59,481 bases of DNA from an uncultured Mycoplasma sp. (GTDB lineage: Bacteria > Bacillota_I > Bacilli_A > RF39 > UBA660): assembly GCA_947646115.1 (NCBI GenBank), contig CANSFH010000004.1, forward strand, positions 1 through 59,481, read 5' to 3'. Both the position numbers and the translations under genes were made by a program. Positions within the stretch are counted from its first letter, which is position 1; each line of letters starts with the position of its first letter. The notes below the pieces were generated by a model. It was not told where the DNA came from, searched no databases, and saw only the letters and a program-made list of their open reading frames with translations. This document shows positions 1 through 56,864 of this stretch, one piece after another.

Positions 1-341
1 ATGGGAAAATAGTCTTTAAATCTTTCTTCTTCACATAAGGCTAAAGCTTCTTCAGGTCTTCCTAGCTTTATTAAGCAAGTAATTCTCTGTTTTTGAATAG
101 GAAAATAGTCTTTAAATCTTTCTTCTTCACAATAATTAAGAGCTTCAATAATGTGTTTATTTCTTATTAGTTTTTTAATTAGAAGAGATGCTCTTATATT
201 TTCTATTTCTGTCTTATTTTCTTTTTGCCAACGATAAATAGTAGATTTAGAAATATTTAATTCTGTACATATTTCTGTTATACTGATATTTTTGGCTAAT
301 TTAAACAAGGCTATATTTTTGATTTCTTTGCTATAAGACAT
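1..341 (-). CDS. HTH + 32-aa TPR-like repeat protein, runs off the left window edge (not in ORF track)
   Basis: ATG at 341 with GAGGT RBS. Manual translation MSYSKEIKNIALFKLAKNISITEICTELNISKSTIYRWQK...EALNYCEEERFKDYFPIQKQRITCLIKLGRPEEALALCEEERFKDYFP; open to the edge. Confidence 0.8.
   Translation of the reverse strand, partial: MSYSKEIKNIALFKLAKNISITEICTELNISKSTIYRWQKENKTEIENIRASLLIKKLIRNKHIIEALNYCEEERFKDYFPIQKQRITCLIKLGRPEEALALCEEERFKDYFP
5..131. repeat. 96-bp-period intragenic direct repeat (31 bp identical at 5-35 and 101-131)
   Basis: gaaaatagtctttaaatctttcttcttcaca occurs at 5 and 101. Confidence 0.9.
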
Positions 342-400
342 GATTTTACCTCTTTCGTTAGCATTTATTCTAAAGGATAATTTAGAAAAAGTAAAGCATT

Positions 401-1483
401 TTAAAGCTTTATAGTACTTTCTAATTTAAAATTAAATAGCTTATCATAATAAATATGTCCTTTAATTAAAATAATTAGAACATTTATAAGATAAAAAAAC
501 ATAATAAATATTAAGGCTGCTAAATAGATGAAAAAACGAATTTGATTTAGTCCATAAAAATCTACGATAAAATGCGTTAAAATAATTATTGCGAATGGTA
601 AATAAAAATAATAAAAACAGGTAAATAAAGTACGTATTATATTTATAATAAAACCATACCATTTATAAGTCATTTTAACATTTAAAAATTTCATTCCCAA
701 AGTACAATTTTGAAACATTAAGGGAATTAATCCATAATATGCTATAAATGAAATTAAAAAATTATATTCTTTTAAAAAAATTGACACTACTAGAAAAAAG
801 ATTAAATAGATAAATAAGTCTAGAAAGAATACTGTAAGGCGTCTAAATCCTGATACTACCTGCCCTCTTGTTTTGGCTTCAATATCAATTTCATCACGAG
901 TTGGTAAGAATTTAAGAGTTCCCATTAAAAGATAACCTAAAGCTCCACCTGTAGTATTTTGAATTAAATCATCAATATCACAAAAACGATAAGGATTAGG
1001 ATAGATAAAGTATAAACCTGTACCTTGAGTAAATTCAAAAAACAAACTTAATAGTAAAGTATAAAGAACTGTTTTCTTTAAACTACATTTAAAGAAATAA
1101 CGAAGATACATACCAAAAGGAATAGTCATTAAAATATTAAATACAACAACATAAAAGCAAGGCTCTGTTAAGGCACTTATATAAGTACTCGGTTCTGTTA
1201 TAACAAAACTTGTTTCATTTATAAATTCAGTGATAAATTGAAATGGAATAAAATTAAAATGAGGCCCTTTTATTTTTAAAGCTTCTGCAAAAGTTGGAAG
1301 TGGCAAAATCACCAGGAAAAATATTACTAATAAATATAATATAAAAGAATATATAATACCAGCTCGTAAGTAATAGATAGAACCATATTTATGATATTCA
1401 TATAAAATATATGGTATTAACAAAATAAAAGCTATAATTGGAAAAATAATTATAGCTGTTTTGATTGCATATAAATAGCTCAT
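401..1483 (-). CDS. VanZ-family membrane protein with C-terminal RDD-like domain
   Basis: NILMTIPFGMYLR and CDIDDLIQNTTGG VanZ motifs; RRLTVFFLD RDD-like motif. Likely start MSYLY at 1483 (ORF open to 1531). Confidence 0.8.
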   Translation of the reverse strand: MSYLYAIKTAIIIFPIIAFILLIPYILYEYHKYGSIYYLRAGIIYSFILYLLVIFFLVILPLPTFAEALKIKGPHFNFIPFQFITEFINETSFVITEPSTYISALTEPCFYVVVFNILMTIPFGMYLRYFFKCSLKKTVLYTLLLSLFFEFTQGTGLYFIYPNPYRFCDIDDLIQNTTGGALGYLLMGTLKFLPTRDEIDIEAKTRGQVVSGFRRLTVFFLDLFIYLIFFLVVSIFLKEYNFLISFIAYYGLIPLMFQNCTLGMKFLNVKMTYKWYGFIINIIRTLFTCFYYFYLPFAIIILTHFIVDFYGLNQIRFFIYLAALIFIMFFYLINVLIILIKGHIYYDKLFNFKLESTIKL

Positions 1484-1569
1484 CTTATTACCTCTTTTCA
1501 TTATAATAATTATATCATAATTATTATGCAAAAAATCTTACAATTTAGTAACATAAATGAAGGCTTTAA

Positions 1570-2310
1570 TTAACAACGAGCAGCACCATCAACGCTTAAG
1601 ATGTTACCTGTAATATAGCTTGCCATATCACTTGCTAAAAATAAAAAGGCATTTGCAATATCTAGTGGTGTACCAATTCTACCTAATGGAATAGTTTTTA
1701 TTAAAGGCTCAATTGTAGAAGCAGGTAAATTTTTTACCATATCTGTTTCGGTAATACCTGGAGCTACAGCATTTACACGAATACCTTTGGGAGCTAATTC
1801 ACGAGATAATGATTTGGTAATTCCATTTACAGCAAACTTTGAAGCAGGATACATAACTCCGGCTGGTTGACCATAAATACTTACCATTGAACTAGTATTT
1901 AAAATTACACCTTTAGTAATACTCAAATATGGAACTATTTCTTTTGAACAAACAAATACTGCTTTGATATTTAAATTGGCTATTTTATCATATTCTTCTT
2001 CACTAAAATCTAAAAGGGGTGTGGATGAAGATATACCAGCATTATTTATCAATATATCTATTTTACCAAAGGTATTATTTATTTTGGAGAAACACTCACG
2101 AACTGATTCAGGATTATGAAGAGTTGGCGCAAAACCGATAACCTCATAATTAGGATTTTCTTTTTTTAACTCTTCTATCGCTTTATTAACACTTTCATCG
2201 TGACTTCCTAATATTACTACTTTAGCTTTATTTTCAAGAAAAAGTTTAGCTGTTGCAAAACCAATTCCTCTTGTTCCGCCTGTTATAATGGCTACTTTAT
2301 TTTCTAACAT
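1570..2310 (-). CDS. SDR oxidoreductase, 3-alpha-hydroxysteroid-dehydrogenase-like
   Basis: TGGTRGIG, NNAG, NTSS and YPASK motifs. Confidence 0.85.
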   Translation of the reverse strand: MLENKVAIITGGTRGIGFATAKLFLENKAKVVILGSHDESVNKAIEELKKENPNYEVIGFAPTLHNPESVRECFSKINNTFGKIDILINNAGISSSTPLLDFSEEEYDKIANLNIKAVFVCSKEIVPYLSITKGVILNTSSMVSIYGQPAGVMYPASKFAVNGITKSLSRELAPKGIRVNAVAPGITETDMVKNLPASTIEPLIKTIPLGRIGTPLDIANAFLFLASDMASYITGNILSVDGAARC

Positions 2311-2394
2311 TTAAATCTCTCCATTTCAATACTCTTTAATTGTAAATCTATTTATAAATTTTAGCAATATTTTTATTTGAGTTGCTTATAATTT

Positions 2395-3543
2395 CTAACT
2401 TATTTTTTGTTTTTGACGAGAAACAAGATTATTTATAACAATAAAAGCTATACTAAATAAAGTTATTATGATAATATTTATAATTATGGGTTTTAGAGAA
2501 AGTAAATTAAATTCTTGAATTGTTTTAATAAGTTCATTATTTTTGATAAAATAATATGATGGTAAAATATGAGCAATATTTAAAACACTAGTTGGTAAAT
2601 ATTCCATTGGAACAAATGCTCCACAAAGAAAACTTGTACCAAGAGCAATTACATTTACAATGCCATTAATTGCTTCTTTATTTTTTACAATGTTACCAAG
2701 TAAAAAAGCAAGAATTACAGTAAATAACATAAATATAAACGAATTTAGAATAAATAATGTTCCATTAATTGTAAACATAATTTTGCCAAAAAGAATAATA
2801 CTTAATAAAACGTAGAATATCCATAATATTGTTGCGAATAGTATATTACATCCAAGTAATTTTATATTAAATTTTTGATAATTCATAGAGCTAACTATAG
2901 TTCTTTTATTTATAAGTTCATTCTTAAAACTAGATAAAATTAAACAGATAATATATATAGCAGAGGCTAAAAAGCAATAATTAGTAAAGTTATAATAAGC
3001 TCCTACTCTTGCTAGAGAACTTGTATCTAATTTAGAAGTAAGAGTAATTTTGCTTTCAGTATTTATAGTTTCATTAACTTTTTTAATTATTTCTTCTTCT
3101 TTTAGATTACTATTATTATAAATATTAGCAATTCGTATATATTTTTTTAGCATCATTTCGGCTAAACTAGCATTATAATCCCCTGTTGATTTAATTTTTA
3201 TTTCCGGATTCTTTTTATTTAAAAAGTTTTCACGAAAATTATTAGGTATATAAATAACATAGTTTACATCACGATAAAATATAGCATCATTAATAGCTTC
3301 TTCACTATTTTTAATTTCTTTTATATTACTATTTTCTTTAATATAATTAATTAGTGATTTTGTTATTCCTTTTTCTTCATCATTATTGATAATTAAAACG
3401 TCAGGAGTACTAGCTATAAAACTCATACTATTATCATTATTTTTCATATTAAATCCAGCAAAAAATATTAAAATTACAGCATACATGATGATAGTAACTT
3501 TATATTTATTTAAGACTTTTAAAAATGTTTTAAATATTGTCAT
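2395..3543 (-). CDS. ABC-2 type exporter permease
   Basis: N-terminal TM, extracellular loop, 5 C-terminal TMs, GAFVP motif; in operon with an ATPase. Confidence 0.85.
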   Translation of the reverse strand: MTIFKTFLKVLNKYKVTIIMYAVILIFFAGFNMKNNDNSMSFIASTPDVLIINNDEEKGITKSLINYIKENSNIKEIKNSEEAINDAIFYRDVNYVIYIPNNFRENFLNKKNPEIKIKSTGDYNASLAEMMLKKYIRIANIYNNSNLKEEEIIKKVNETINTESKITLTSKLDTSSLARVGAYYNFTNYCFLASAIYIICLILSSFKNELINKRTIVSSMNYQKFNIKLLGCNILFATILWIFYVLLSIILFGKIMFTINGTLFILNSFIFMLFTVILAFLLGNIVKNKEAINGIVNVIALGTSFLCGAFVPMEYLPTSVLNIAHILPSYYFIKNNELIKTIQEFNLLSLKPIIINIIIITLFSIAFIVINNLVSRQKQKIS

Positions 3544-4717
3544 AGCTTGTCCTCCTTAAACTAATTATGGATATACCAAGTAAAATAATAGCTATAATAA
3601 TTAAGCTTATGATATTAATAAAGAAACGATTAAGAGTATCATAATAATATAAAGAATAAAAGCCATCAGTAATTAAACTTGCAGGATTAATTTTGTTTAT
3701 TATAGGCACATTAGTATCAACAATATATTTCATGGTAATACCCATCATTCCTGATAAGAAACAGCCTAGCATTGTAATTGAAATCATTAAGCCAATTTTT
3801 AAGTCTTCTCCACTTTTTAATATGCTAGCTATCATTATACCAAGAGATAGGCCTGTAAATGATCCAATTAAAGCAAGTAATATGACTAAAAGTAGATTAT
3901 CACCATAATCAACTTTGATAACAAAAATGGTAAATAAGAATAAAATTAAAAGACCAATTAACTGGGCAATATATCCAGCTAGAGCACTACTTAATATGAC
4001 ATTACTTTTTTTAGTTGGCGCAACACTTATTCTTTTACCAATATTCCCCATATTAGCTAAACATCGATTAATAGACCACATTCCAAGTATTCCACCATAA
4101 AGACAAGTCATAGCAATAAGTGTATAATATTCAATCATTGTATAACTTAAATTATTAGGACTTATATCATTAATGTTAGTAAAGTCTTCATTTATTAGAC
4201 CTAAAACTTCCTGATATATATTATTTTTAAACTCTTCAAAATTATTTAGTACTGTAGGATTATTCATTACACCGGTTTCAATCTTTTCGGTTATTATATT
4301 TTTAATAATTAGTTCTTGTTCTAATAATTCATCTACAACAGTTTTTAGGATTGTTTCATTAATTCCACTACTATTTACTACAATATTCGCGGAATCAGTA
4401 AAAGTAACATAACCTGTGATTTTTTTATTCTCAAGTAACTCTTTGGCAGTATCTAGATTTACATATTCGATATTAAAAAGCTTGGTATCAGAAGTACTTA
4501 AACTTTTAAAAGTTTCTTGATACAATTCATTATTTTTAAATTCTGAAGTATCAATAATTGCTATATCAATTACAGTTAGTTTTTCACTATTCTCGATGTT
4601 AGAGAAAGCCATATTAAAGAATAAACCTAATATGATAGGAAAAGCAAAGGTCCAAAAAATAAGCATTTTATTTTTAAAAAGAGTTAGTAATGTATATTTA
4701 AAATTATGGAAAAACAT
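3530..4717 (-). CDS. ABC-2 type exporter permease
   Basis: FWTFAFPIILG start, FLSGM motif; overlaps neighbouring genes. Confidence 0.85.
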   Translation of the reverse strand: MFFHNFKYTLLTLFKNKMLIFWTFAFPIILGLFFNMAFSNIENSEKLTVIDIAIIDTSEFKNNELYQETFKSLSTSDTKLFNIEYVNLDTAKELLENKKITGYVTFTDSANIVVNSSGINETILKTVVDELLEQELIIKNIITEKIETGVMNNPTVLNNFEEFKNNIYQEVLGLINEDFTNINDISPNNLSYTMIEYYTLIAMTCLYGGILGMWSINRCLANMGNIGKRISVAPTKKSNVILSSALAGYIAQLIGLLILFLFTIFVIKVDYGDNLLLVILLALIGSFTGLSLGIMIASILKSGEDLKIGLMISITMLGCFLSGMMGITMKYIVDTNVPIINKINPASLITDGFYSLYYYDTLNRFFINIISLIIIAIILLGISIISLRRTSYDNI

Positions 4718-8516: not shown

Positions 8517-10649
8517 GTGATGTTTATGAAAAAATTATTTAATATTATAAAGACTATTTTTTGGGCATTTTGGGCTTTTATCAAGGGATGGTTTTCAGAT
8601 AAGAAACCAGGTAAAACTATACAAGAAAATACTCTAGAAAATGTACAAAGAGATAATGCTAAAATTAAAATTATCGATAGTAATGGTTTTACTACTGATG
8701 AAGCTAATAAAGACCCTCAAGAAATATTTATATCTGAAGCACATGTTAAAGAAATAATTAGAGAAAAATATCAAGATAATTTAGGCAATAATTATAATGA
8801 AGATATACCTACAGTAATAGAAAATAAAATTTTAACGCAAGTTAAAAATGAAGTACAAAAAGAAGAAATTATAACTATTAATAATTTAGAAGCTATAATT
8901 GAAGAACAAGTAAAAGCCAATACTCAAGAATTAAATAATACTGAAGATAAGCCTTATGTGAAAAAGACAGCTTTAAAAGAAAATTTTGTAGTTTTATTTA
9001 ATGATAATACTTATCAATTAGTAGATAAATTTGATAATATTATTTCAGTAAGATTTAAAGCTCCTATTATAGATTATGTAGATAATTATTTAAAAGTTTT
9101 TTATGATAATAAATATTATGTTTATGATATTAAAGGTAATATTTTAACTAAAGTTGGTTTTAAGGATATTAGACTTTATGAGGATTTTTATGCAGTTATT
9201 AATGATGATTATTTGTTAGATGTTCGAGAGTATTTAGACCCCAATTTTAAATTATCTACACCTATATTGCTTGATAAAATGTGCTATCAAAGCGACTATG
9301 ATATAAAAAAATATATTAGTGAATATAAAATTAAAATTAAAAGCAAAAATGAAGTGTATCATGCTGATACTAATGGAAATATTTTAAATAAAAAGGAAGT
9401 TAAGCCAATTGATATAACTAACCCCGTAGTTAACTCGCCTATTTTAGAACAACAATCTATTACTAATGAAGATGATAAGCCTTTAGGTAATGAGCAAACT
9501 TATGAAATTAAATATGGTTATAAGGAAGCTAATACTAATGATGCTTTTGAAAATACTTCATATGAAGAAAAATCAGTTAATAATAAAAATGAAGATTTAA
9601 TAAATGATAATTTTAATGAAGATTATCGAGAAACTAATGAGGAAAATCATCAAGCATATAATGATGATGCTATAAGTAATGAAGCTACAGTTGTAAATGA
9701 TAATAGCAATAATAAAAATAGTAATGAAAAACGTGAGATAAATTCAAAAAAAGAAATTACAACAGAAATTCAAAAAGTAGTTGATGATGTTGAAGAAAAA
9801 ATAGAGATAATATCAAATAATAGAATAATAGAAAATAAAAAAGAAGAACTTGATGATAAAAATTATGAAGCTTTAGAAGAAGAACTAAATCAAGTGTTAG
9901 AAATAATTGAATTAAAAAAGAAATCATCTAAAAATCCAGAGGATTTAAAAAAATTGAATTATTTAGAAAATAAAACATTAAGATTAAAAAGGAATATAGA
10001 AATTCAAAAAAATGCTGATATTACTAAAGAAAAGGAATATTTAGATGAAGGAATTCATACTGGAGAACTATATGATTTACAAACAGAACTTAAAAATGTT
10101 CATTTATCTTATGAACAAAATTTAAATAGCTATGCTCTGCAAAGTATCGAAGAATTAAATAAAATAAGTGTTAATGATGCTAATAATATTGAAAAAGATT
10201 TATTAAAAAAGGAATTACATAAAGCAAATAAAGTAGCAAAAGTAGCTAATATTCTGGATTTAATCCCCTTCGTTCGAAATTGTTATTTTAAATTTTTTGC
10301 AAGTGGAATGCTTGTTAAAACACATTTAAAAATATATGAAATTATTTTAAAGAGAAAGACTACTCCTTATAGAGAAAGTAACTTTAATAATATGATTAAT
10401 GGACATACTGCTCTCAATGGTGGCCTTTCGTTGAATGTGAGAAATGTTAATCGATTGAATGCTCTTGATGAAGCAACTAAAGCAAAATTCCCAGAAATGG
10501 CTTATGATGAAGAATATCAATTAAGCATGAATAATTTAAAAAATTCTTTATTATCTGAACAAGAAAAAATGCTTAAGAAAAAAAAGATTATTGCAAAATA
10601 TAATTTAGCTAAAAAAGCTATTGTGAGAGAAAGAAAAAAAGCTGCATAG
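8517..10649 (+). CDS. Large hypothetical protein: amphipathic N-terminus, beta-repeat module, N/E-rich linker, helical C-terminus
   Basis: 710-aa ORF; aa ~156-290 align by eye to the C-terminus of the 24354-26489 protein. Confidence 0.8.
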   Translation: MMFMKKLFNIIKTIFWAFWAFIKGWFSDKKPGKTIQENTLENVQRDNAKIKIIDSNGFTTDEANKDPQEIFISEAHVKEIIREKYQDNLGNNYNEDIPTVIENKILTQVKNEVQKEEIITINNLEAIIEEQVKANTQELNNTEDKPYVKKTALKENFVVLFNDNTYQLVDKFDNIISVRFKAPIIDYVDNYLKVFYDNKYYVYDIKGNILTKVGFKDIRLYEDFYAVINDDYLLDVREYLDPNFKLSTPILLDKMCYQSDYDIKKYISEYKIKIKSKNEVYHADTNGNILNKKEVKPIDITNPVVNSPILEQQSITNEDDKPLGNEQTYEIKYGYKEANTNDAFENTSYEEKSVNNKNEDLINDNFNEDYRETNEENHQAYNDDAISNEATVVNDNSNNKNSNEKREINSKKEITTEIQKVVDDVEEKIEIISNNRIIENKKEELDDKNYEALEEELNQVLEIIELKKKSSKNPEDLKKLNYLENKTLRLKRNIEIQKNADITKEKEYLDEGIHTGELYDLQTELKNVHLSYEQNLNSYALQSIEELNKISVNDANNIEKDLLKKELHKANKVAKVANILDLIPFVRNCYFKFFASGMLVKTHLKIYEIILKRKTTPYRESNFNNMINGHTALNGGLSLNVRNVNRLNALDEATKAKFPEMAYDEEYQLSMNNLKNSLLSEQEKMLKKKKIIAKYNLAKKAIVRERKKAA

Positions 10650-10741: not shown

Positions 10742-11098
10742 ATGATTAGTAATGGTGTGGATATTATAAAAATTGATAGATTAAAAAAAATTGTAAGTAA
10801 TGAAAAAATGTTTAATAATATATTTACCGAAAATGAACATAAATATTTCGAATTTAGAAATAATAGTCTAGAAACTTTGGCCGGAATGTTTGCTGCTAAA
10901 GAAGCTGTTTTAAAGTGTATGCACCAAGGTCTTGATAGTTATAAATTATCAGATATTGAAGTTAATCACAATAATTATGCCCCCTACTTAACATTTTATG
11001 GTGAACTAAAAAAAGAAATAGAACTGCAAAATTTACACTTTTCGGTTTCTATTTCTCATGATGGCGAATATGCAATAGCTTTTGTTATTTCATTTTAA
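10742..11098 (+). CDS. acpS: Holo-ACP synthase (phosphopantetheinyl transferase)
   Basis: GVDII, FAAKEA and SISH motifs. Confidence 0.92.
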   Translation: MISNGVDIIKIDRLKKIVSNEKMFNNIFTENEHKYFEFRNNSLETLAGMFAAKEAVLKCMHQGLDSYKLSDIEVNHNNYAPYLTFYGELKKEIELQNLHFSVSISHDGEYAIAFVISF

Positions 11099-12026
11099 CT
11101 TCTTTTTTATAGTTAATTAAATCTTCATTCCAAGTATTATATTTTGAATCTTGTCTGTGATCAGTAAATCCTTTCATTTTCATATAGTTTCCAAGATATT
11201 CGGAAACTTTTTTTGAGCCTTCAAAGTTTAAATGATCCCCTTTATCTACAGTTTCAGTTGCCCAATCTATATTTAAATTAACATCTAAGTTTAAATCTAA
11301 ATGTGCTACTTGAAACTCTTTAGCAATTTCTTTAATTGCTAAATATTTAGAATAATTGCAATTTTTCATACTTGGAGTACTTAAAAGTATTAATTCAATA
11401 TTATTTTCTTTACATTTTTCAATAATTTTAGAAATGTAATAATAATTTAAATCAGGTATTTCTTTAACATCTTTTTTCTTTTTCATATAATTCTTATGAA
11501 CATTATCAGGTGAGTTAACTTTACTCATATAGCGAAAACCTTTTAAATGATCACGATCTTTATAATTTTCTTCAGCAAATAATTCGCTTAATGATAAATT
11601 TTTCCAACGATTATGATATTCAAATACAGGAAATATTTTTTTACCTTCAGCACCAATAACATTTATAACTTTGTATTTACGAAAAAATTGATTTGTTTCT
11701 AAAAAAACAATTTGAGGTTTTTGGTTTTTTAAAGTTTTAATTAAATTATTATAAGATTCATATAAATATTGTGCTGACATGGCAAGATCATAAGAAGTAT
11801 AACCATAATTTTCCCATATATGCATGGGATTTATTGCTGTGTAAACAAGTGAATCACCAATAAATAAAGCGTCAAGAGAATTATCTTTTTCTCCCATTAC
11901 TAAATTTGTTTTGCGCGTTCTTGTAGACATTGCAATGTTACTTTTTGGAACAAATATAAATGATGATACTAATAATAAGATAATAAAAATGATAAGAAAT
12001 ATAAGAACTTTAACAACATTTTTCAT
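11085..12026 (-). CDS. SGNH/DltD-like membrane-anchored acyltransferase partner
   Basis: N-terminal TM; FIGDS block I; DKGDHLN (DxxH) block V; follows the MBOAT gene. Confidence 0.75.
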   Translation of the reverse strand: MKNVVKVLIFLIIFIILLLVSSFIFVPKSNIAMSTRTRKTNLVMGEKDNSLDALFIGDSLVYTAINPMHIWENYGYTSYDLAMSAQYLYESYNNLIKTLKNQKPQIVFLETNQFFRKYKVINVIGAEGKKIFPVFEYHNRWKNLSLSELFAEENYKDRDHLKGFRYMSKVNSPDNVHKNYMKKKKDVKEIPDLNYYYISKIIEKCKENNIELILLSTPSMKNCNYSKYLAIKEIAKEFQVAHLDLNLDVNLNIDWATETVDKGDHLNFEGSKKVSEYLGNYMKMKGFTDHRQDSKYNTWNEDLINYKKEVKMK

Positions 12027-12036
12027 AAATTACCTC

Positions 12037-13626
12037 CTAAAAATTAGCATATATTGGATCAATTGGTGTATAACCAGGACCATAAGCGCCAAAGATTATT
12101 ATAAACATAATAAGTGCAAAATAAATAACCCATCTGAAAACTATATTATAGCTAGCAATTTTCTCACGAATATTTAAGCCTTTTTCTCGTAATAAGCCAA
12201 TTATAAAAACAATTATAATAGAAACAATAATTATAATAAAGTCATTGCCATCTACCCCAAAAGTTAAGAATTTACCATTAATAAAACTTTCAAAAGTAAA
12301 AGAAGTAAAGATTGTTTTTATCATATTTAAAGCTTGTGTAAATGTGTTTGCCCTAAAGATTAATTCTCCAAAGACAATTAAAATAAATAGTTTAATAAAT
12401 TCAACAAGACGATAAATTATACTATTACGATTAATATGAAGTTTTAGACATAAATCTCTTATGAATGGTTCAGTAATATTACCTAATAAAATTAAAATAA
12501 AATGATATAATCCAAAAGCAATATAATTCCAACCAGCACCATGCCATAAACCGTTTAATAACCAAACTGATAATAAAGCTACAGATCCAGTTAATAGTGG
12601 ACCAAAATGATTTCCTAATTTTTTACGAGTAACAATAGTTAGTTTTTTCATCTTTTTAGATAAAGATACTGGATAAAAAATATAGTCTTTAAACCAAGTA
12701 CCTAAAGTAATATGCCATCTAGTCCAAAATTCGGAAATTGTTTTAGAGAAGAATGGCTGACGGAAATTTTCTGGAAGTTTGATACCAAATATTTCTCCAC
12801 TACCTATAATGACATCCATTGTACCTGAAAATTCCATATAAAGCATTATCGTGTAACATATTGCGCCAAATAGCACTAAACCACCATCAAGGACTTCTAC
12901 ACCATCAAATACTACTTTCACAAAAGCATTTAAACGATCAGCTACAACAAATTTTTTTAAGATTCCCCAAAGAATTCTTTGACAGCCAAAGCAAATATTT
13001 TGAAAAGTTATTTCTTTGCCACTGTATAAATCTTCTGCAGTGTCATTATATCTTGCAATTGGTCCTTCCATAATTCCAGGAAAGAAAGCAAGATAAAGTG
13101 CTAATCTAGTTATTTTATGATCAGCATCGATTTTTTTATGATAAACATCAACTAGATATGATATAGCTGCTAAAGTATAGAATGAAACGCCGATTGGGGC
13201 AATTAATTTGAATAATTTAAATTCAAATGGAATATTGATAATCTTTAATAAACTATTTATATTTACTGTAAAAAATGGTAAATATTTATATATAAAAAGT
13301 ATTATTACTTGCATGAGTATAGCTAGTAACAAAAATCTTTTTTTCTTTTTCTTAAAAGCTTCTTTTACCTTCTTTTTATCTTCGACAATATTTTTAGCAA
13401 AAAATTCTTCAGATTCAGTATCTATTTTCTCAAATTTTCTTCCAAAAAAATAAATGGAAGCTGTAGTAAATAACAAGAAGATTATTAATTTACCGGATAT
13501 TAAAAAAAAGAAAATGTAACTAGCTAGAAGCAATACTAACCATTTACATTTCTTTTTAGCTATATGATAAATTAGAACTGTAAGTGGCAAGAAAAAAAAT
13601 AAATATACGACACTTAAGTAGTTCAC
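12037..13626 (-). CDS. MBOAT-family O-acyltransferase (DltB/AlgI-like)
   Basis: PIGVSFYT, EGPI, ENFRQP, EFWTRWHITL, GLWHG. Confidence 0.93.
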   Translation of the reverse strand: MNYLSVVYLFFFLPLTVLIYHIAKKKCKWLVLLLASYIFFFLISGKLIIFLLFTTASIYFFGRKFEKIDTESEEFFAKNIVEDKKKVKEAFKKKKKRFLLLAILMQVIILFIYKYLPFFTVNINSLLKIINIPFEFKLFKLIAPIGVSFYTLAAISYLVDVYHKKIDADHKITRLALYLAFFPGIMEGPIARYNDTAEDLYSGKEITFQNICFGCQRILWGILKKFVVADRLNAFVKVVFDGVEVLDGGLVLFGAICYTIMLYMEFSGTMDVIIGSGEIFGIKLPENFRQPFFSKTISEFWTRWHITLGTWFKDYIFYPVSLSKKMKKLTIVTRKKLGNHFGPLLTGSVALLSVWLLNGLWHGAGWNYIAFGLYHFILILLGNITEPFIRDLCLKLHINRNSIIYRLVEFIKLFILIVFGELIFRANTFTQALNMIKTIFTSFTFESFINGKFLTFGVDGNDFIIIIVSIIIVFIIGLLREKGLNIREKIASYNIVFRWVIYFALIMFIIIFGAYGPGYTPIDPIYANF

Positions 13627-13628
13627 TT

Positions 13629-13859
13629 TTATTCTTCCTCTTGTAATTTAGTTATTAGTGCATACATACTTTTTACAGAATTAAAGTTGCTAGGAATGAT
13701 TTCAATTGTTGGTATTTCAACTTCAAACTCCTCTTCTATTTCTGCGACTAATGATAAAATAGTTAAAGAATCTAAAAATCTTCCATCTACTAAATTATCT
13801 GTATTTTGGTAATCTACCTCGGGATTTAATCCTTCTAATATTTCAATTAATTTATCCAT
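13629..13859 (-). CDS. Acyl/aminoacyl carrier protein (DltC-like)
   Basis: 76 aa, acidic, LDSL phosphopantetheine site, NFNSV. Confidence 0.9.
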   Translation of the reverse strand: MDKLIEILEGLNPEVDYQNTDNLVDGRFLDSLTILSLVAEIEEEFEVEIPTIEIIPSNFNSVKSMYALITKLQEEE

Positions 13860-13867
13860 TTATAACA

Positions 13868-15025
13868 CTACCTTTCTTCATTTGGACTATTTAATTTACT
13901 TGTTTTAATATTTGCTCGTACAAGCTCAATATTATCACCATTTTTAATTAATACTTTAGGTAATTCTCTACTTAAGAATAAAGATATACCTTCAGTTGTA
14001 GAGTAAGCTCCAGTATTTTTAAAAACTATTATATCACCTAGTTCTAAATGCCCAGGATGAAATTCTTTTACTAAAATATCATTTATAGTACATAAAGAAC
14101 CTACGACAATATAAGTATCATTACCATTCCTTTTGGGAATAACTTCATTGTAAGGAGTGTTCATGGCCATATTACCACCATAATATACTAAATGATTTAT
14201 TCCTCCATCTACTAGAGCATATGTACCTGATTTATTAGTTTTTAAATCAACGACACTAGTTAGGTATTCCCCTGCAGGAGCAGCAATACTTCGACCTAAT
14301 TCAAGACTAACTTTTTTATTTTTAATATGTTTGATAATTCGACTAAATTCAGTTAAGAATTCATCTTCATTAAAATTTGATCCTTCAAAATAATAAATTG
14401 GAAAACCTGGGCCATATTCAAATTCTTCTAAAGTGATATTATAGTCTCTTTCTAAATTTTCCATTAACTCATTTACTTTAATTAGTTCTTTTTCTAATAT
14501 CGGAATTGAATGCCGTTGGGTCTTATTAAAATATTCAATTCCCTTAATATTCATAAACTCTTTATCAAAATGTTCCAAAACATATTTTACGTCACTTTCA
14601 CTCATTCCAAATTGGTTACCACTTGTAAGTCTTATTAAAACATCAATCTTACGATTATATTCTTTAGATAATCTAGATAAAAGTTGAAACTGGTTTAATG
14701 ATTCAAGAGTAAATTTACCAGGATTAGAATGTTCAAACATATAACGAATACTAGCTTCATCTTTATATACTCCTGATATTACCATTTTTTCATCAGGAAC
14801 ATTTGATGAAACTGCTATTTCATATTCGCCAAAAGAACATAATTCGACTTTTTCAACGTATTCTTTAATATAAGGAATTAAGAAAGTGTTAGCTTTTACC
14901 GCATATACTAGATCAATATCCTTACTAATATATTTTCGTAAATAGTTAATACGCTCTTTTAATTTAGCTATATCAAGTAAATAAAATGGTGTCGAATATT
15001 TTTTCGTTATTTCTTCAATATTCAT
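13868..15025 (-). CDS. PLP-dependent fold-type III decarboxylase (LysA/BtrK/VinO-like)
   Basis: YAVKAN, ELGR, GSLC, GAYS; the HIGSQ and GGG motifs are altered to YFNKTQ and YGPGF. Confidence 0.85.
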   Translation of the reverse strand: MNIEEITKKYSTPFYLLDIAKLKERINYLRKYISKDIDLVYAVKANTFLIPYIKEYVEKVELCSFGEYEIAVSSNVPDEKMVISGVYKDEASIRYMFEHSNPGKFTLESLNQFQLLSRLSKEYNRKIDVLIRLTSGNQFGMSESDVKYVLEHFDKEFMNIKGIEYFNKTQRHSIPILEKELIKVNELMENLERDYNITLEEFEYGPGFPIYYFEGSNFNEDEFLTEFSRIIKHIKNKKVSLELGRSIAAPAGEYLTSVVDLKTNKSGTYALVDGGINHLVYYGGNMAMNTPYNEVIPKRNGNDTYIVVGSLCTINDILVKEFHPGHLELGDIIVFKNTGAYSTTEGISLFLSRELPKVLIKNGDNIELVRANIKTSKLNSPNEER

Positions 15026-16527
15026 TATTTCACCTCCCTACTCATTAAAGCTTTACGATCAATTTTACCATTTTTGGTAAGAGGCATTTCTTCTACTTTT
15101 ATTAATTTGGTGGGAATCATAAACACGGGTAAAGTTTCCTTTAATTTTAAATGTAAATCTTTTTTATCCATATCGCCAATGTAGAAGCCATAAAGCTTAC
15201 TTTTTTCTTCATCAAATATAACGCAAGAACGAATTATACCATTTATTTTCATCATAGCTCGTTCAATTTCTTCTAACTCGATTCTATGTCCTTGATATTT
15301 AATTTGAAAATCTTTGCGACCACAAAATACTATTTCACCAAATTCATTATATTCACCAAGATCTCCTGTATTATACATCATTTCTTGATATTCGGTAACT
15401 AGAGGATTAGTTATAAATACCTCATTGGTTTTTTCTTTATTATTATAATATCCTAAAGCTAAAGCAGTTCCACTTACACAGATTAAGCCTTTTTCATGAG
15501 GTTTAGTTATTTCTTTAGAGTTATCATCAAGAAGCATTACTCTTTCATTAGGAAAGTGCTTACCAATAGGTATTTTATCTTCATACATTCTATTTCTATC
15601 AAGGATATGATAAGTACAATTACAAGTTATTTCAGTGGGACCATAAACATTAACAAACATTGTATTAGGTAATTTTTCCATCCAAATATTTAAATGTTTC
15701 ATTGGCATTACCTCTCCAGAGAAAATTACTCTTCTAACAGACTTGGGCACTTTATAATCAAGACCATGGAAAGTAGTAATTAAACAAAGTGCAGAGACTG
15801 CCCAAGTTAAATTAGTTATGTTTTTATCTACTAAATAATCTAGTAATTTAGCAGGATTTGAAAAATAACTTTTAGGTATTATAACAAGAGTAGCTCCTGT
15901 AAAAAAGGCCGCATAAATATCTTTTACGGAAACATCAAAATCAAATGGAGCTTGATTACCTATAATATCAGTATCATTAATACCAAAAAGTCTAGTAAAC
16001 TCTCGCATAAAATCGATAATAGAACGATGACTTACTACAACACCTTTAGGAACTCCTGTAGAACCAGAAGTAAAGTTAATATATACAGGGTCATAATCAA
16101 TTACTTTATCATGAATAATATTTAATAATTCTATATTTATGGTTGTATTTTTAATATCACTAATATTTACTACATTTTCAAATAATTCACAAGCTAGATT
16201 AAGATGGTCATCATCAGTTATAACAAGAGGACTATTTAGTACACTTTTAATATCTAAAATTCGGTTATGAGGAAATTCGGGATTAACTAAACAATAGCTG
16301 CATCCGGCATACAGTGAACCTAAAAATGAAATTGAAGTATCTATTCCTTTATCCATAAAAATAATTATGGGCTTTTTAAATATTTTTAAATTAGCTATAA
16401 AAGTTCCAACACTTCGAGAAGATTTAATTAAATTTTTATAAGTTATTTTTTCGTCTTCACATATAATAGCTAGTTTATCAGGATATAAACTCGCACTATT
16501 TTCAATATAATTTAAGACTGTGTACAT
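15025..16527 (-). CDS. Stand-alone amino acid adenylation enzyme (DltA-like)
   Basis: FTSGSTGVPKG, FDVS, YGPTE, YNTGD, GHRIELEEIE, NGKIDR core motifs. Confidence 0.93.
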   Translation of the reverse strand: MYTVLNYIENSASLYPDKLAIICEDEKITYKNLIKSSRSVGTFIANLKIFKKPIIIFMDKGIDTSISFLGSLYAGCSYCLVNPEFPHNRILDIKSVLNSPLVITDDDHLNLACELFENVVNISDIKNTTINIELLNIIHDKVIDYDPVYINFTSGSTGVPKGVVVSHRSIIDFMREFTRLFGINDTDIIGNQAPFDFDVSVKDIYAAFFTGATLVIIPKSYFSNPAKLLDYLVDKNITNLTWAVSALCLITTFHGLDYKVPKSVRRVIFSGEVMPMKHLNIWMEKLPNTMFVNVYGPTEITCNCTYHILDRNRMYEDKIPIGKHFPNERVMLLDDNSKEITKPHEKGLICVSGTALALGYYNNKEKTNEVFITNPLVTEYQEMMYNTGDLGEYNEFGEIVFCGRKDFQIKYQGHRIELEEIERAMMKINGIIRSCVIFDEEKSKLYGFYIGDMDKKDLHLKLKETLPVFMIPTKLIKVEEMPLTKNGKIDRKALMSREVK

Positions 16528-16599
16528 ACTACCACCTCTTACTTAACAAAATTATAGCAAAAAAAAATTAAGTGTATCTTAAATTAACCTTAATTTTTC

Positions 16600-18180
16600 T
16601 TAAGAAAGAGGAAACTCTATTATAAATTCAGTTTTATATGGTTTACGTGGTTTTTTTATAAGTCTAATTGCTCCCCCATTAATTTCAACTGCTCTTTTAA
16701 CTATCGATAAACCAAGACCTGTACCAGTAGATGGTCCACGTGAATCATCGCCACTTACAAAAGGATTAAAAATATTATCCATTAATTCTTCATTAATCCC
16801 CTTGCCATTATCAGCAAATGTAATTCTAATTGTTTTTTTGATTTTTTCAAGTTTAAAATAAATAGTAGTACACTTTTCATTATATTTTAAAGCATTAGAT
16901 ATTAAATTATCAAGCATACGATTCATAATTTTTTTATCTATGTTGTATATTATTTTATAATTAGGAATTTTAACGTCAAGTTTAAATTTTAAAATTTCAA
17001 TGTCATTATATTTATTAGCTAAATATGTCGTAAAATATTCACTTAAATCAACTGCTTCTAAATGAATATCTAAACCTTTATTTTCATATTTGGTAAATTC
17101 TAATAAAGAATTTATAACATTTGTAGCTTCTTCACATTTACTATAAATTGCTTCTAAATAAATACGTTTTTTATTGTCAGGGACAATATCGTCTAAAAAT
17201 GCTTTGGAATAACCTTCAATAACTGTAAGAGGAATTTTTAAATCATGAGACAAATTAGCAAATATTCGAGCTCGCTCCTGATAAAGTTTATTTTTCTTTT
17301 CTTCTTCTCTTTTTAATTTATTAAAAATACGTTTAAAGCTATATACTAGCTTTATAAATTCTTTAGATATTTTACTATTTTCAATGACAAACTCATTATT
17401 TTTTTCATAATTCTCTAAAGCAATATTTAATGGTTCTAAACTTTTTTTGATATTAGAAACTATAAGATAAGCATAAATAATAATTATAGCTAAAAATAAA
17501 GGAATAAAATAAATCCAAGTTTGATTGATATGATTTAGAGTTTTTTGAAGTTCATCAGGATTTAGTTCTTTTGATAAAAAAATTATTATTCTTTTTTCTC
17601 CATCAATAGTTTCATAACTAGCTTTTTCAATAGAAATTCCTTTAGTATGATTGCCTTCAATTAAATTAAATTCTCGTTCAGTTAATGATGTTTTATCACC
17701 AAATAAGCTTCCATTTACAATATTATAATCTTTATCTAAAAAAGCAAAATCTACATATTCATTTGTACCACTTGAAGAAAACTTACTTTTTATTATATGA
17801 TAAAACTTTTCATTTTTAATATTTTTTTCATAAACAGTATAATAACTATAATCATAATAATCATTAATAAAGTCTAAATCTTCATCAGCAATAATATTAT
17901 TTAAATTAGAATCAGTAGAATATATAACTTCAAAGTCCTCATTATAAATTAAAAAATTATTATTTTTAAACTTATATAATGGTAATTTTGTAAAGTTATC
18001 AGTACGTAATATTTCTTCATAATTAAGTAAATCATCAATATATAAAAAACTATTATCAAGGCAATAATCAACTAATTTATTTACCAGAAAAAAAGTTAAT
18101 AAAATAGTCGTAATAAATAGTATAAAATAAATAATAGTATTTTTAATTAAGCTTTTATTAATTTTCATTTTTAGTTTCAA
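16600..18180 (-). CDS. Sensor histidine kinase
   Basis: Two TMs, SHDLKIP H-box, NLISNALKY, DNGKG, GTGLGL. Confidence 0.93.
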   Translation of the reverse strand: MKLKMKINKSLIKNTIIYFILFITTILLTFFLVNKLVDYCLDNSFLYIDDLLNYEEILRTDNFTKLPLYKFKNNNFLIYNEDFEVIYSTDSNLNNIIADEDLDFINDYYDYSYYTVYEKNIKNEKFYHIIKSKFSSSGTNEYVDFAFLDKDYNIVNGSLFGDKTSLTEREFNLIEGNHTKGISIEKASYETIDGEKRIIIFLSKELNPDELQKTLNHINQTWIYFIPLFLAIIIIYAYLIVSNIKKSLEPLNIALENYEKNNEFVIENSKISKEFIKLVYSFKRIFNKLKREEEKKNKLYQERARIFANLSHDLKIPLTVIEGYSKAFLDDIVPDNKKRIYLEAIYSKCEEATNVINSLLEFTKYENKGLDIHLEAVDLSEYFTTYLANKYNDIEILKFKLDVKIPNYKIIYNIDKKIMNRMLDNLISNALKYNEKCTTIYFKLEKIKKTIRITFADNGKGINEELMDNIFNPFVSGDDSRGPSTGTGLGLSIVKRAVEINGGAIRLIKKPRKPYKTEFIIEFPLS

Positions 18181-18835
18181 ATTTATACCCGAGCCCCCTT
18201 ACAGTTACAATATATTTTGGTTTAGATACATTATCTTCTAATTTACTACGAAGATTAGATATATGAACCATTATCGTATTATCGTCAAAGCAATAATTAT
18301 TACTTATTGCTTCATATAATTGATATTTGGTAAATACTTTACTAGGATTTTTCATTAAAAGTGCTAATATTTTAATTTCTGCAGTGGTTAAATTTAAAAG
18401 TTCATCTTCTTTATAAACTAAAAAGTTATCTAAATCAAGTTTAATATTGCCAATACTAATAGTTTTAGATTCTTTAGAAGTTCTTCTAAATATAGCGTTG
18501 ATATAAGCAAGTACTTCTAGAGGATTAAATGGTTTGGTGATATATGCATCGGCGCCTAAATTAAGACCTAAAATGCGGTCATTATCAGAAGCTTTAGCAG
18601 ATAAAAATATTACAGGAACATCACTAAACTTACGAATGTTTTTTACTAGTTCGTAGCCGTCCATAACTTCCATCATAACATCAGCGATAATTAAATCAAT
18701 TTTTTTTTCATTATAAATAGTCAAAGCTTCTTTTCCATTATAGCTTTTATAGACATTATAGTTATTTGATTCTAAATAAAGAGTTAAAAGTTCAACAATA
18801 TCTTTATCATCTTCAGCAATAAGAATATTTTTCAT
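18158..18835 (-). CDS. OmpR-family response regulator
   Basis: AEDD, DVMM, ITKPF, TVRGLGY. Confidence 0.95.
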   Translation of the reverse strand: MKNILIAEDDKDIVELLTLYLESNNYNVYKSYNGKEALTIYNEKKIDLIIADVMMEVMDGYELVKNIRKFSDVPVIFLSAKASDNDRILGLNLGADAYITKPFNPLEVLAYINAIFRRTSKESKTISIGNIKLDLDNFLVYKEDELLNLTTAEIKILALLMKNPSKVFTKYQLYEAISNNYCFDDNTIMVHISNLRSKLEDNVSKPKYIVTVRGLGYKFETKNEN

Positions 18836-19065
18836 TATTATTCACCAACACTTTTTAACATGTTTAGTATAGCAAAAAAGTATAAATTTGTAAATTAACT
18901 TGTACTTATATTGTAATTAATATATTTATTTAATTTTGTCAAAAAAGAACTGACCATTTTAATATTACAAAATTTAAGTTTTTTATGAAGCTCATAACTT
19001 TAGTTGGTACAAACTCCTTTCAGAACAAAAAAAAGATTAACCGAAATTAACCTTTATGTATTGAA

Positions 19066-56327: not shown

Positions 56328-56330
56328 AAC

Positions 56331-56864
56331 TTAAGCTTTATTAACTTGATATACTTCTACTTCTACTGGAGTTTCTTGACCAAATAAATCGATTAAAACA
56401 TTTAAACGATTATTTTCTAAATCAATATTATCAACACGACCCATCATACCTTTGAACGGACCATCAACAATATTAACTTTATCGCCAACGGCAAGCTCTG
56501 CTTCAACATTAACTCGACTCATACCCATATTAGCTAATATTTTATCAATCTCTTGTGGAAGTAATGGTGTTGGTTTAGCTCCTTTACCAGATGAACCGAT
56601 AAATCCTGTTACTCCTGGAGTATTACGAACGATATACCAAGCTTCATCACTCATTACCATTTCAACAATAATGTATCCGGGAAACATTTTATGTTTCTTT
56701 TCTTTTTTTACCCCATCTTTAACTTCAACTTCTGTTGTTTCTGGAATAATAATACGATAAATATAATCTTGTAAGCCCATTGATTCAACTTTAGCTTCAA
56801 GTTTTTCTTTTACCTTTGATTCATGTCCACTATATGTGTTAACAACATACCATTCTTTTTCCAT
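56331..56864 (-). CDS. nusG: Transcription termination/antitermination factor NusG
   Basis: WYVVNTYSGHE, FPGYIIVEM, TPGVTGF, KOW GPFKG, FGQETPVE. Confidence 0.98.
   Translation of the reverse strand: MEKEWYVVNTYSGHESKVKEKLEAKVESMGLQDYIYRIIIPETTEVEVKDGVKKEKKHKMFPGYIIVEMVMSDEAWYIVRNTPGVTGFIGSSGKGAKPTPLLPQEIDKILANMGMSRVNVEAELAVGDKVNIVDGPFKGMMGRVDNIDLENNRLNVLIDLFGQETPVEVEVYQVNKA

Follow-up and report, generated by a model that had tools for sequence, protein, structure and literature searches.

The window, a 59,481-nucleotide stretch of DNA from an uncultured mouse-gut Firmicute, carries a minus-strand operon of five closely spaced genes. The first encodes a stand-alone adenylation enzyme (A-domain; 500 aa, 15025..16527; AMP-binding, 3e-58), and is followed by genes for a fold-III PLP decarboxylase of the DAPDC/BtrK clade (385 aa, 13868..15025; Orn_DAP_Arg_deC and Orn_Arg_deC_N, about 1e-12), an acyl carrier protein (ACP; 76 aa, 13629..13859; PP-binding, 2e-5), an MBOAT protein (529 aa, 12037..13626; MBOAT, 5e-13; DltB TIGR04091, 2e-44), and a membrane-anchored protein of SGNH fold, a putative transferase (313 aa, 11085..12026). 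On the plus strand, the holo-ACP synthase gene acpS (10742..11098; ACPS, 2e-14; TIGR00516, 64 bits against a cutoff of 60) converges on the operon and overlaps the SGNH gene by 14 nt at the operon's 3′ end. All six open reading frames named in a preliminary description of this DNA lie where it placed them. The adenylation and decarboxylase genes overlap at a TAATG junction, the later gaps are 8, 2 and 10 nt in gene order, and there is a ribosome-binding site at each. The operon is evidently native, since its GC content (0.268) equals that of the whole window (0.264).

The binding pocket of the adenylation enzyme reads D-V-K-T-I-S-V-C-N-K, with a family code of D-V-K-x-x-S-x-C-N-K, and 81 sequences all share D235, V236, K239, S301, C330, N331 and K517. 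This pocket differs from that of DltA in the presence of the invariant Lys239; in DltA the D-methyl group is recognized by L198 and C269 (PMC11253843). A DltA orthologue with a D-Ala pocket is ruled out both by Lys239 and Ser301 and by the DltA equivalog TIGR01734, which scores 301 bits against a cutoff of 560. Lys239 would suit an anionic substrate, and V236 and S301 agree with VinN and engineered TycA at two of their three features for binding beta-amino acids (PMC11253843); the three residues together appear to fit an anionic substrate bound in the beta mode. However, the beta13-beta14 loop shows no shortening in comparison with alpha-amino-acid domains, and the VinN-type reverse binding mode is therefore only partly supported; positions 330/331 are likewise C/N rather than the K/R of VinN-type domains.

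The decarboxylase is publicly annotated as 'diaminopimelate decarboxylase', and its top NCBIfam match is TIGR03099 (2e-47). Several features rule out its identity as LysA, the meso-diaminopimelate decarboxylase. First, the LysA equivalog TIGR01048 falls short of its 298-bit cutoff with a score of 160. Second, in an alignment to LysA 4XG1 the segments CHIGSQ, LGGGLG and GPICETGD are replaced by YFNKTQ, YGPGFP and GSLCTIND, so that CE(S/T)GD is missing along with the HIGSQ and GGG motifs whose absence had already been pointed out. Third, the loop CTIND resembles CTPED of BtrK and CTPKD of SbnH, and differs from CETGD of LysA. Lys44 (the PLP lysine), Glu242, Arg245, Cys312 and Tyr341 are invariant across homologues. 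BtrK is the best PDB match by sequence (2e-26, versus 4e-22 for LysA) and the best fold match (E 1.5e-27, TM 0.81), though its lead over the DAPDCs is small (96 versus 82 bits; TM 0.81 versus 0.83). The enzyme thus resembles BtrK, as originally proposed, if only slightly more closely than LysA, and the DAP-binding signature of LysA is missing from it.

BtrJ/I/K, CtaD/E/F and FlvN/L/O all decarboxylate Glu or Asp while it is tethered to a carrier (PMC11350588; PMC7183216). We consider it probable that the operon specifies a carrier-fed MBOAT-SGNH system for envelope acylation, in which a decarboxylation on the carrier yields the acyl donor. One property of the predicted decarboxylase counts against this: Phe takes the place of the PLP-stacking His of HIGSQ, and GGG is changed to GPG.

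Two other readings deserve consideration here. The decarboxylase could turn free Asp into beta-Ala, free Glu into GABA or free DAP into Lys, and so supply the A-domain with its substrate, much as a racemase supplies D-Ala to Dlt. The founding member of the DAPDC clade does use a free substrate, V236 and S301 would be compatible with a beta-amino acid as well, free beta-alanine for instance, and the order of the steps does not follow from operon membership alone. We nonetheless regard this as unlikely, because the invariant Lys239 would be left without a partner if the substrate were already decarboxylated, and because the enzyme lacks both the DAP-binding Glu and the HIGSQ of LysA. Moreover, no fold-III enzyme is known to decarboxylate free Asp or Glu. 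The characterized members of the clade other than LysA all use substrates with a derivatized distal carboxyl (PMC7857480; PMC7183216), and CtaF rejects free Asp (PMC7183216). Alternatively, DAP could be loaded through one alpha-carboxyl and decarboxylated at its distal center, giving a lysyl group that would be exported with two positive charges. The A-domain loop has the length seen in alpha-amino-acid domains, the proximal amine could be bound by Asp235 and the distal carboxylate by the deep Lys239, and the decarboxylase resembles DAPDCs almost as closely as it does BtrK. This route is nevertheless quite unlikely: LysA grips the far end of DAP with the Glu of CE(S/T)GD and the specificity-helix Arg, both of which are absent here, and V236, S301 and L/V322 make for a narrow pocket compared with the Lys-activating codes. 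Lysine is also open to direct loading, and there is no obvious benefit in the detour.

The phosphopantetheine site of the carrier protein is Ser31 in an LDSL motif that is conserved in 77 homologues. The DltC model NF003464 scores 26 bits against a cutoff of 68, and the protein is a generic PP-binding ACP rather than a DltC. The convergent acpS gene that had been reported is present, and it occupies the same position in 36 of 80 related loci; with linkage limited to this part of the family it cannot be called a dedicated one.

The MBOAT protein has a DltB-like core followed by a C-terminal extension of two transmembrane helices (residues 461-479 and 495-513). It matches DltB 6BUG at 2e-23, while TIGR04091 reaches 152 bits, short of its cutoff of 375, over residues 74-425 of 529 only. 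His305 and His362 are invariant in 76 homologues, and His362 aligns with the His of the DltB WHG motif. In all 74-76 full-length homologues the protein ends in P[IM]YA[DN]F, which here is PIYANF-COOH (12040..12057, minus strand), containing Tyr526. The motif FxYxxF is an acyl-Tyr shuttle demonstrated for DltX and PatA, and takes the form FIYANF in Neisseria gonorrhoeae PatA (PMC12148441). The hexapeptide matches this shuttle motif, with a first residue of Pro rather than Phe. The invariant hexapeptide on two extra helices points to a PatA/AlgI-type architecture joined to a Dlt-type carrier protein. A DltB of about 400 aa working with a separate DltX microprotein is ruled out by the fused motif, by the TIGR04091 score below its cutoff, and by the lack of any separate DltX-like ORF. 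The MBOAT of the preliminary description is upheld in its place within the A/ACP/MBOAT/SGNH logic, but the protein resembles PatA/AlgI, with a fused Tyr shuttle, instead of DltB with a separate DltX.

The last protein of the operon has no Pfam match, even at E = 10. Its AlphaFold model (pLDDT 91.9) retrieves SGNH/GDSL hydrolases in Foldseek at a probability of 1.00, with DltD 6PFX only at rank 47 (E 1e-4), after generic SGNH hydrolases. A single N-terminal transmembrane helix is present, and G57, D58, S59 and H265 are invariant, Ser59 lying in a GDS motif and His265 in GDHLN. The Foldseek ranking and the absence of a Pfam match together indicate an SGNH fold with an N-terminal anchor that is not a close relative of DltD and does not belong to the DltD family. 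An SGNH/DltD-like protein had been predicted; the fold is as expected, and the likeness to DltD does not extend to sequence.

A survey of fixed linkage, proposed in the preliminary description, was carried out on 80 related loci belonging to Bacilli and Clostridia of the gut and rumen. The order A-domain, decarboxylase, ACP, MBOAT, SGNH is kept in 75 of them, spanning Bacilli, Lachnospiraceae and Oscillospiraceae at 46-90% identity, and this linkage exceeds chance by far. Four of the five exceptions are interrupted by contig ends. In the fifth (locus L035) the A-domain, decarboxylase and ACP genes are followed by ribosomal genes with no MBOAT or SGNH gene, which counts against envelope acylation as the function. 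The decarboxylase proves to be the integral member of the operon it was taken for, always present and placed between A-domain and ACP: its gene is flanked by the A-domain gene in 80 of 80 loci and by the ACP gene in 77 of 77, and every locus has it embedded in the operon by a start/stop overlap.

This arrangement bears on a further alternative, an ordinary dlt operon that happens to lie beside lysA. The public annotation of the decarboxylase, and the names DltA and DltB among the top NCBIfam matches, would favor it. It is hardly credible, however, and is contradicted by the model scores, since the lysA model and each of the four Dlt-type models fall far short of the curated cutoffs, by the in-operon position of the decarboxylase, and by differences in the pocket code, in the fusion of the shuttle and in the LysA motifs, which are missing. 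The survey also bears on whether the first three genes encode a starter module for the thiotemplated synthesis of a small natural product in the style of butirosin, closthioamide or the macrolactams, with MBOAT and SGNH serving export or self-resistance. All characterized carrier-tethered decarboxylations belong to secondary metabolism, and L035 has just this trio. Yet the 80 neighborhoods show no recurrent condensation, ketosynthase, ATP-grasp, transglutaminase or tailoring genes, and the only recurrent neighbors are acpS and a two-component system. In all studied cases, moreover, a Tyr-shuttle MBOAT and its anchored SGNH partner are dedicated to acylating a polymer. We therefore consider a natural-product module very improbable. 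Counting against envelope acylation, on the other hand, no glycopolymer synthesis gene is linked to the operon across these neighborhoods.

The two-component system lies on the minus strand upstream of the operon, and comprises a sensor histidine kinase (16600..18180; HisKA and HATPase_c) and an OmpR/VanR-type response regulator (18158..18835; Pfam Response_reg and Trans_reg_C), a probable regulator of the operon. The best NCBIfam match of the regulator is the VanR family, at 200 bits, which is below that model's cutoff. The kinase has transmembrane segments at residues 15-33 and 223-241 with an outside loop of ~190 aa. This pair adjoins the operon in 24-25 of the 80 loci. Upstream of the operon, direct repeats reading TTAAG-N5-TTAAG-N6-TTAAG-N6-TTAAT (16567..16603, minus strand) form a candidate operator for the response regulator. 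The pattern TTAA[GT]N5-6TTAAG occurs upstream of the A-domain gene in 19 of 24 two-component-linked loci versus 1 of 56 unlinked ones, against a background of 0.6% of 250-nt windows. A match to the extended -10 consensus, TGCTATAAT (16551..16559, minus strand), lies 24 nt upstream of the A-domain start codon with no good -35, and is a candidate activator-dependent promoter; the ribosome-binding site AAGAGGTGG of the A-domain gene is downstream of it. Mouse-gut metatranscriptome contigs match across the operon with 0-1 mismatches, although these data carry no strand information, are shallow and may include DNA.

The system shares parts with several known ones. As in Dlt (DltX, DltA, DltB, DltC and DltD; teichoic acid D-alanylation), a stand-alone A-domain loads a small AcpS-primed carrier, and there is an MBOAT with a conserved His, the Tyr of an FxYxxF-type motif, and an anchored SGNH protein. 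A two-component system also lies beside dlt in Streptococcus agalactiae (dltRS). It differs from Dlt in having a PLP decarboxylase between A-domain and ACP, Lys239 and Ser301 in the A-domain pocket, a shuttle fused to the MBOAT on two extra helices in place of a DltX gene, and an SGNH partner outside the DltD family. The additional MBOAT helices ending in a shuttle hexapeptide are shared with PatA/PatB, AlgI/AlgJ/AlgX and WssH/WssI, as is a separate SGNH partner, here membrane-anchored and with invariant Ser59 and His265. Those O-acetyltransferases are fed by acetyl-CoA, and because they use acyl-CoA they have neither carrier protein nor adenylating enzyme (PMC12148441); here, in contrast, A-domain and ACP are in the operon in all loci, and the proposed donor is an aminoacyl-ACP.

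Ligase, carrier and DAPDC-clade decarboxylase are likewise encoded together in BtrJ/BtrI/BtrK, CtaD/CtaE/CtaF, VinN/VinL/VinO and FlvN/FlvL/FlvO, where Asp or Glu is attached to the carrier through its side-chain carboxyl and there loses its alpha-carboxyl. The products of the butirosin, closthioamide and macrolactam modules enter antibiotics, whereas MBOAT-SGNH export is proposed here. BtrJ and CtaD are ATP-grasp enzymes, unlike the NRPS/DltA-like A-domain with its Lys239, and VinN-type A-domains have K330/R331 and a shortened loop, neither of which is found here. Finally, the exosortase-A-associated pair TIGR03098/TIGR03099 of exopolysaccharide loci always combines an AMP-forming ligase with a LysA-like PLP decarboxylase. 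Scores against these models are far below their cutoffs (162 versus 478 bits and 197 versus 592 bits), and the pair, itself uncharacterized, is found in Proteobacteria, where it has a PEP-CTERM context and no accompanying MBOAT-SGNH pair. A search of the full-text literature found no published description of the decarboxylase-bearing operon, and the preliminary description had known of none.

Our inferred scheme for carrier-fed envelope acylation, which extends to the choice of substrate, the sequence of loading and decarboxylation, the acceptor and the role in the cell, runs as follows. AcpS would convert the 76-aa ACP to its holo form, and the A-domain would adenylate a dicarboxylic amino acid, with Lys239 gripping the free carboxylate and Asp235 the amine, and thioesterify it onto the ACP; the likeliest substrate is aspartate bound through its side-chain carboxyl. 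The BtrK-like decarboxylase would then strip the remaining alpha-carboxyl from the tethered residue to give an omega-aminoacyl-S-ACP. The acyl group is most likely beta-alanyl, with 4-aminobutyryl or lysyl as possibilities. The MBOAT, with His362 as catalytic residue, would move it through the membrane onto Tyr526 of its own PIYANF shuttle, from which the anchored SGNH protein would take it onto Ser59 and then pass it in ester linkage to an extracellular glycopolymer or glycolipid. Where present, the adjacent two-component system may activate the operon through the TTAAG repeats. Such ester transfer would add positive charge to a surface polymer, and the system would be a relative of D-alanylation in which a decarboxylation step has been added to the A/ACP/MBOAT/SGNH logic.

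The genes lie exactly where the preliminary description placed them, as five open reading frames on the reverse strand and one convergent frame on the forward strand. Domain models (Pfam, NCBIfam) recognise an AMP-binding adenylation enzyme (A; 15025–16527, −; 3e-58), a fold-III PLP decarboxylase of the Orn/DAP/Arg type (DC; 13868–15025, −), a PP-binding carrier protein (ACP; 13629–13859, −) and the convergent acpS (10742–11098, +), and the sole NCBIfam match of the MBOAT protein (12037–13626, −) is DltB (2e-44). All scores of the operon proteins against the NCBIfam equivalog models for Dlt and LysA are far under the curated cutoffs. The genes are closely packed, with a TAATG stop/start overlap at the first junction followed by gaps of 8, 2 and 10 nt, each junction having a Shine-Dalgarno sequence, and acpS overlaps the last gene (SGNH; 11085–12026, −) by 14 nt. 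The source of the window is a bacterium of the mouse gut, and operon and window have equal GC content.

A scan of about 185,000 species genomes, one per species, finds relatives of the decarboxylase in 393, and we examined the gene neighborhoods of the best 80 of these, which are gut and rumen MAGs labelled, among others, as Bacilli, Erysipelotrichaceae, Lachnospiraceae, Oscillospiraceae and Eubacterium. This survey, a check proposed at the outset, shows the A-DC-ACP-MBOAT-SGNH order to be identical in 75 of the 80 decarboxylase-seeded loci – the decarboxylase being kept in these homologous clusters – and to be cut by contig ends in four others. In one locus (L035:3397–6289 and downstream, in an Agathobacter-labelled bin) A-DC-ACP, with TTAAG repeats upstream, is followed directly by rpsL-rpsG-fusA-tuf; neither an MBOAT nor an SGNH gene was found next to A-DC-ACP there. 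Either the system is split in this genome or the junction is an artefact of assembly. Clustering of the flanking ORFs across the 80 loci reveals only two recurrent neighbors, the convergent acpS (36 loci) and a response regulator-histidine kinase (RR-HK) pair (24–25 loci; 18158..18835 and 16600..18180, both −, in the window), together with a pair of ABC exporter genes that recurs within one subclade. In the latter (L027, L032, L053, L056–L060, L064, L068 and L072; approximately positions 1–4100) RR-HK and the operon are immediately preceded by two fused TMD-NBD exporter genes, which suggests a larger co-regulated envelope module. Glycosyltransferase, LtaS and Tag genes are not among the linked genes in this clustering, which hence gives no clue to the acceptor. 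A Faecousia MAG has a second, shorter MBOAT gene upstream of the operon (L062:1657–3057). Just past acpS in the window is an ORF (8517–10649, +) for a 710-residue protein in which N, E and K are abundant; it has no transmembrane segment and matches nothing in Pfam or NCBIfam. A partial homologue is located close to the same operon in a related locus (L002).

Public records label DC and its homologues 'diaminopimelate decarboxylase', but there are several departures from LysA. First, the closest PDB sequence match is BtrK (2e-26, versus 4e-22 for the top LysA), whose substrate for decarboxylation is gamma-glutamyl-S-BtrI, and BtrK is also the closest fold match (E 1.5e-27, TM 0.81), with DAP decarboxylases and SbnH close behind. 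Second, alignment to LysA 4XG1 bears out the reported absence of the LysA motifs, HIGSQ being replaced by YFNKTQ and GGG by GPG. Third, in the same alignment the substrate loop CTIND resembles CTPED of BtrK and CTPKD of SbnH, unlike CETGD of LysA. Finally, an invariant INHLVYYG stands where LysA has its IRPALY specificity helix, and the far-end contacts that LysA makes with DAP are missing. The PLP site is nonetheless intact, since Lys44, Glu242, Arg245, Cys312, Asp316 and Tyr341 are invariant among homologues. In the analysis of Phillips, Michael and colleagues, BtrK, SbnH, AcsE, MccE and FigC share a clade with DAP decarboxylase, the substrates of these five being amino acids derivatised at the far end (PMC7857480). 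Decarboxylation of Asp or Glu on a carrier is established for BtrK, CtaF and FlvO, and CtaF does not accept free aspartate (PMC11350588; PMC7183216).

The adenylation enzyme is a generic stand-alone NRPS-type A-domain, with single-domain scores of 232 bits to GrsA, 230 to TycA and 201 to DltA; a glycine-specific relationship to LgrA was rejected, as the 385-bit score to that protein adds two A-domains together. The ten specificity positions, mapped by motif and given in GrsA numbering, yield the code D-V-K-T-I-S-V-C-N-K, in which seven positions (D235, V236, K239, S301, C330, N331 and K517) are invariant in 81 sequences. In Glu-activating domains Lys at 239 binds the side-chain carboxylate, and its presence here argues that the substrate would retain its second carboxylate at loading, and that decarboxylation would therefore come after loading. 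No code starting with DVK is present in a published NRPS signature survey. One structural review of A-domains links beta-amino-acid binding by VinN and engineered TycA to three features, namely a larger residue at 236, a Ser at 301 and shortening of the beta13-beta14 loop by one residue (PMC11253843). Of these, A has the first two, both of them invariant; the shortened loop is absent, the segment after YGPTE aligning without gaps to the alpha-amino-acid domains of LgrA. A free H2N-CH-COOH group on the carrier can arise from only four substrates: Asp, Glu or 2-aminoadipate bound through the side chain, or DAP bound through one alpha-carboxyl. We rank conversion of Asp to a beta-alanyl unit first, because 4-aminobutyryl thioesters are prone to cyclisation – butirosin biosynthesis uses a protecting group for that reason – and no protecting enzyme is encoded at the operon.

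The DltB model spans only residues 74–425 of the MBOAT protein, and DltB 6BUG aligns with the MBOAT core, RWH and WHG included; His305 and His362 do not vary among homologues. The other 100 residues make up two helices, both strongly hydrophobic, and the protein ends in PIYANF. This terminal P(I/M)YA(D/N)F is invariant across full-length homologues and is, by sequence, the acyl-shuttle hexapeptide. In Dlt systems the hexapeptide is located on the microprotein DltX. PatA carries it as part of the MBOAT chain, with a Tyr that undergoes auto-acetylation, and the gonococcal PatA peptide FIYANF is the acetyl donor to PatB; systems with the fused motif are described as lacking a carrier protein (PMC12148441). 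In contrast to these, the operon has a carrier protein as well as the fused motif; a search for a DltX-like ORF at the operon found none.

The fifth protein (313 residues) has no Pfam match and no PDB sequence match, and its AlphaFold model, built from 33 homologues, is confident (pLDDT 91.9). Foldseek matches the model to SGNH/GDSL hydrolases with a probability of 1.00, but DltD ranks just 47; of the initial 'SGNH/DltD-like' assignment the fold thus stands and membership of the DltD family does not. Together with a single N-terminal transmembrane helix and the invariant GDS Ser59 and His265, this match indicates a predicted anchored SGNH transferase in the role of DltD or PatB, outside the DltD family. 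The family is large, a profile search finding 3,128 clusters (50% identity) at E ≤ 1e-30. Domain searches with two longer members, P0145 and P0285, gave DUF4300 alone or nothing.

Two sequence features precede the A gene: the repeats TTAAG-N5-TTAAG-N6-TTAAG-N6-TTAAT, and an extended −10 element, TGCTATAAT, that lacks a good −35. Of the 24 loci with the two-component system, 19 have the motif TTAA[GT]N5-6TTAAG no more than 220 nt upstream of the A gene, against one of the 56 other loci; in this single locus the upstream flank is too short to exclude the system. The background is 0.6% of 250-nt windows. This co-occurrence points to direct control of the operon by the OmpR/VanR-type regulator, as a prediction from sequence. 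A further operator-like match (56330–56344) sits on the nusG stop codon and was taken as chance. RR-HK has a good promoter of its own (TTTACA-17-TGcTATACT at 18894–18866, −), and the outside loop of the kinase is about 190 residues long. A GGTTAAT-N3-GGTTAAT direct repeat about 150 nt upstream of this promoter (19033–19052, −) may be an autoregulatory site. A promoter and terminator scan in this AT-rich DNA was not above shuffled sequences (58 found, 68.6 expected), and the promoter evidence rests on reading of the A-upstream region and cross-locus conservation. Low-depth contigs from two mouse-gut metatranscriptomes match most of the operon and of the two-component genes with no more than one mismatch, which agrees with in vivo expression but does not prove it.

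The operon would work as Dlt does, as a carrier-fed MBOAT-SGNH relay, yet it fails every Dlt membership test; its MBOAT has the PatA/AlgI architecture, and its donor would be made by the chemistry of the BtrK, CtaF and FlvO modules. The preliminary description was aware of no characterisation of such a system, and full-text literature searches likewise found no description of it; a Clostridium cellulovorans paper was rejected because btrK there is an unrelated gene name. Carrier-fed acylation with a donor decarboxylated on the carrier is the likely general mechanism. More tentatively, gut and rumen Firmicutes may have a second carrier-dependent MBOAT-SGNH pathway besides Dlt, in which carrier-bound Asp is decarboxylated and the beta-alanyl group is esterified to a surface glycopolymer via the MBOAT-fused Tyr shuttle, controlled in many lineages by a dedicated two-component system. 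The 'diaminopimelate decarboxylase' label probably inflates predicted lysine biosynthesis and can falsify lysine-prototrophy calls in these MAGs. If the proposed pathway is correct, carrier-protein donors and fused Tyr shuttles would be combinable, and this would be the first on-carrier decarboxylation serving the cell envelope rather than antibiotic biosynthesis. D-alanylation is the textbook Gram-positive means of tuning surface charge, resistance to cationic antimicrobial peptides and host recognition. Beta-alanyl esters would be a cationic envelope decoration chemically more stable than D-alanyl esters, and a different amino-acyl group would mean a new envelope chemistry for uncultured lineages that are among the most abundant in the gut.
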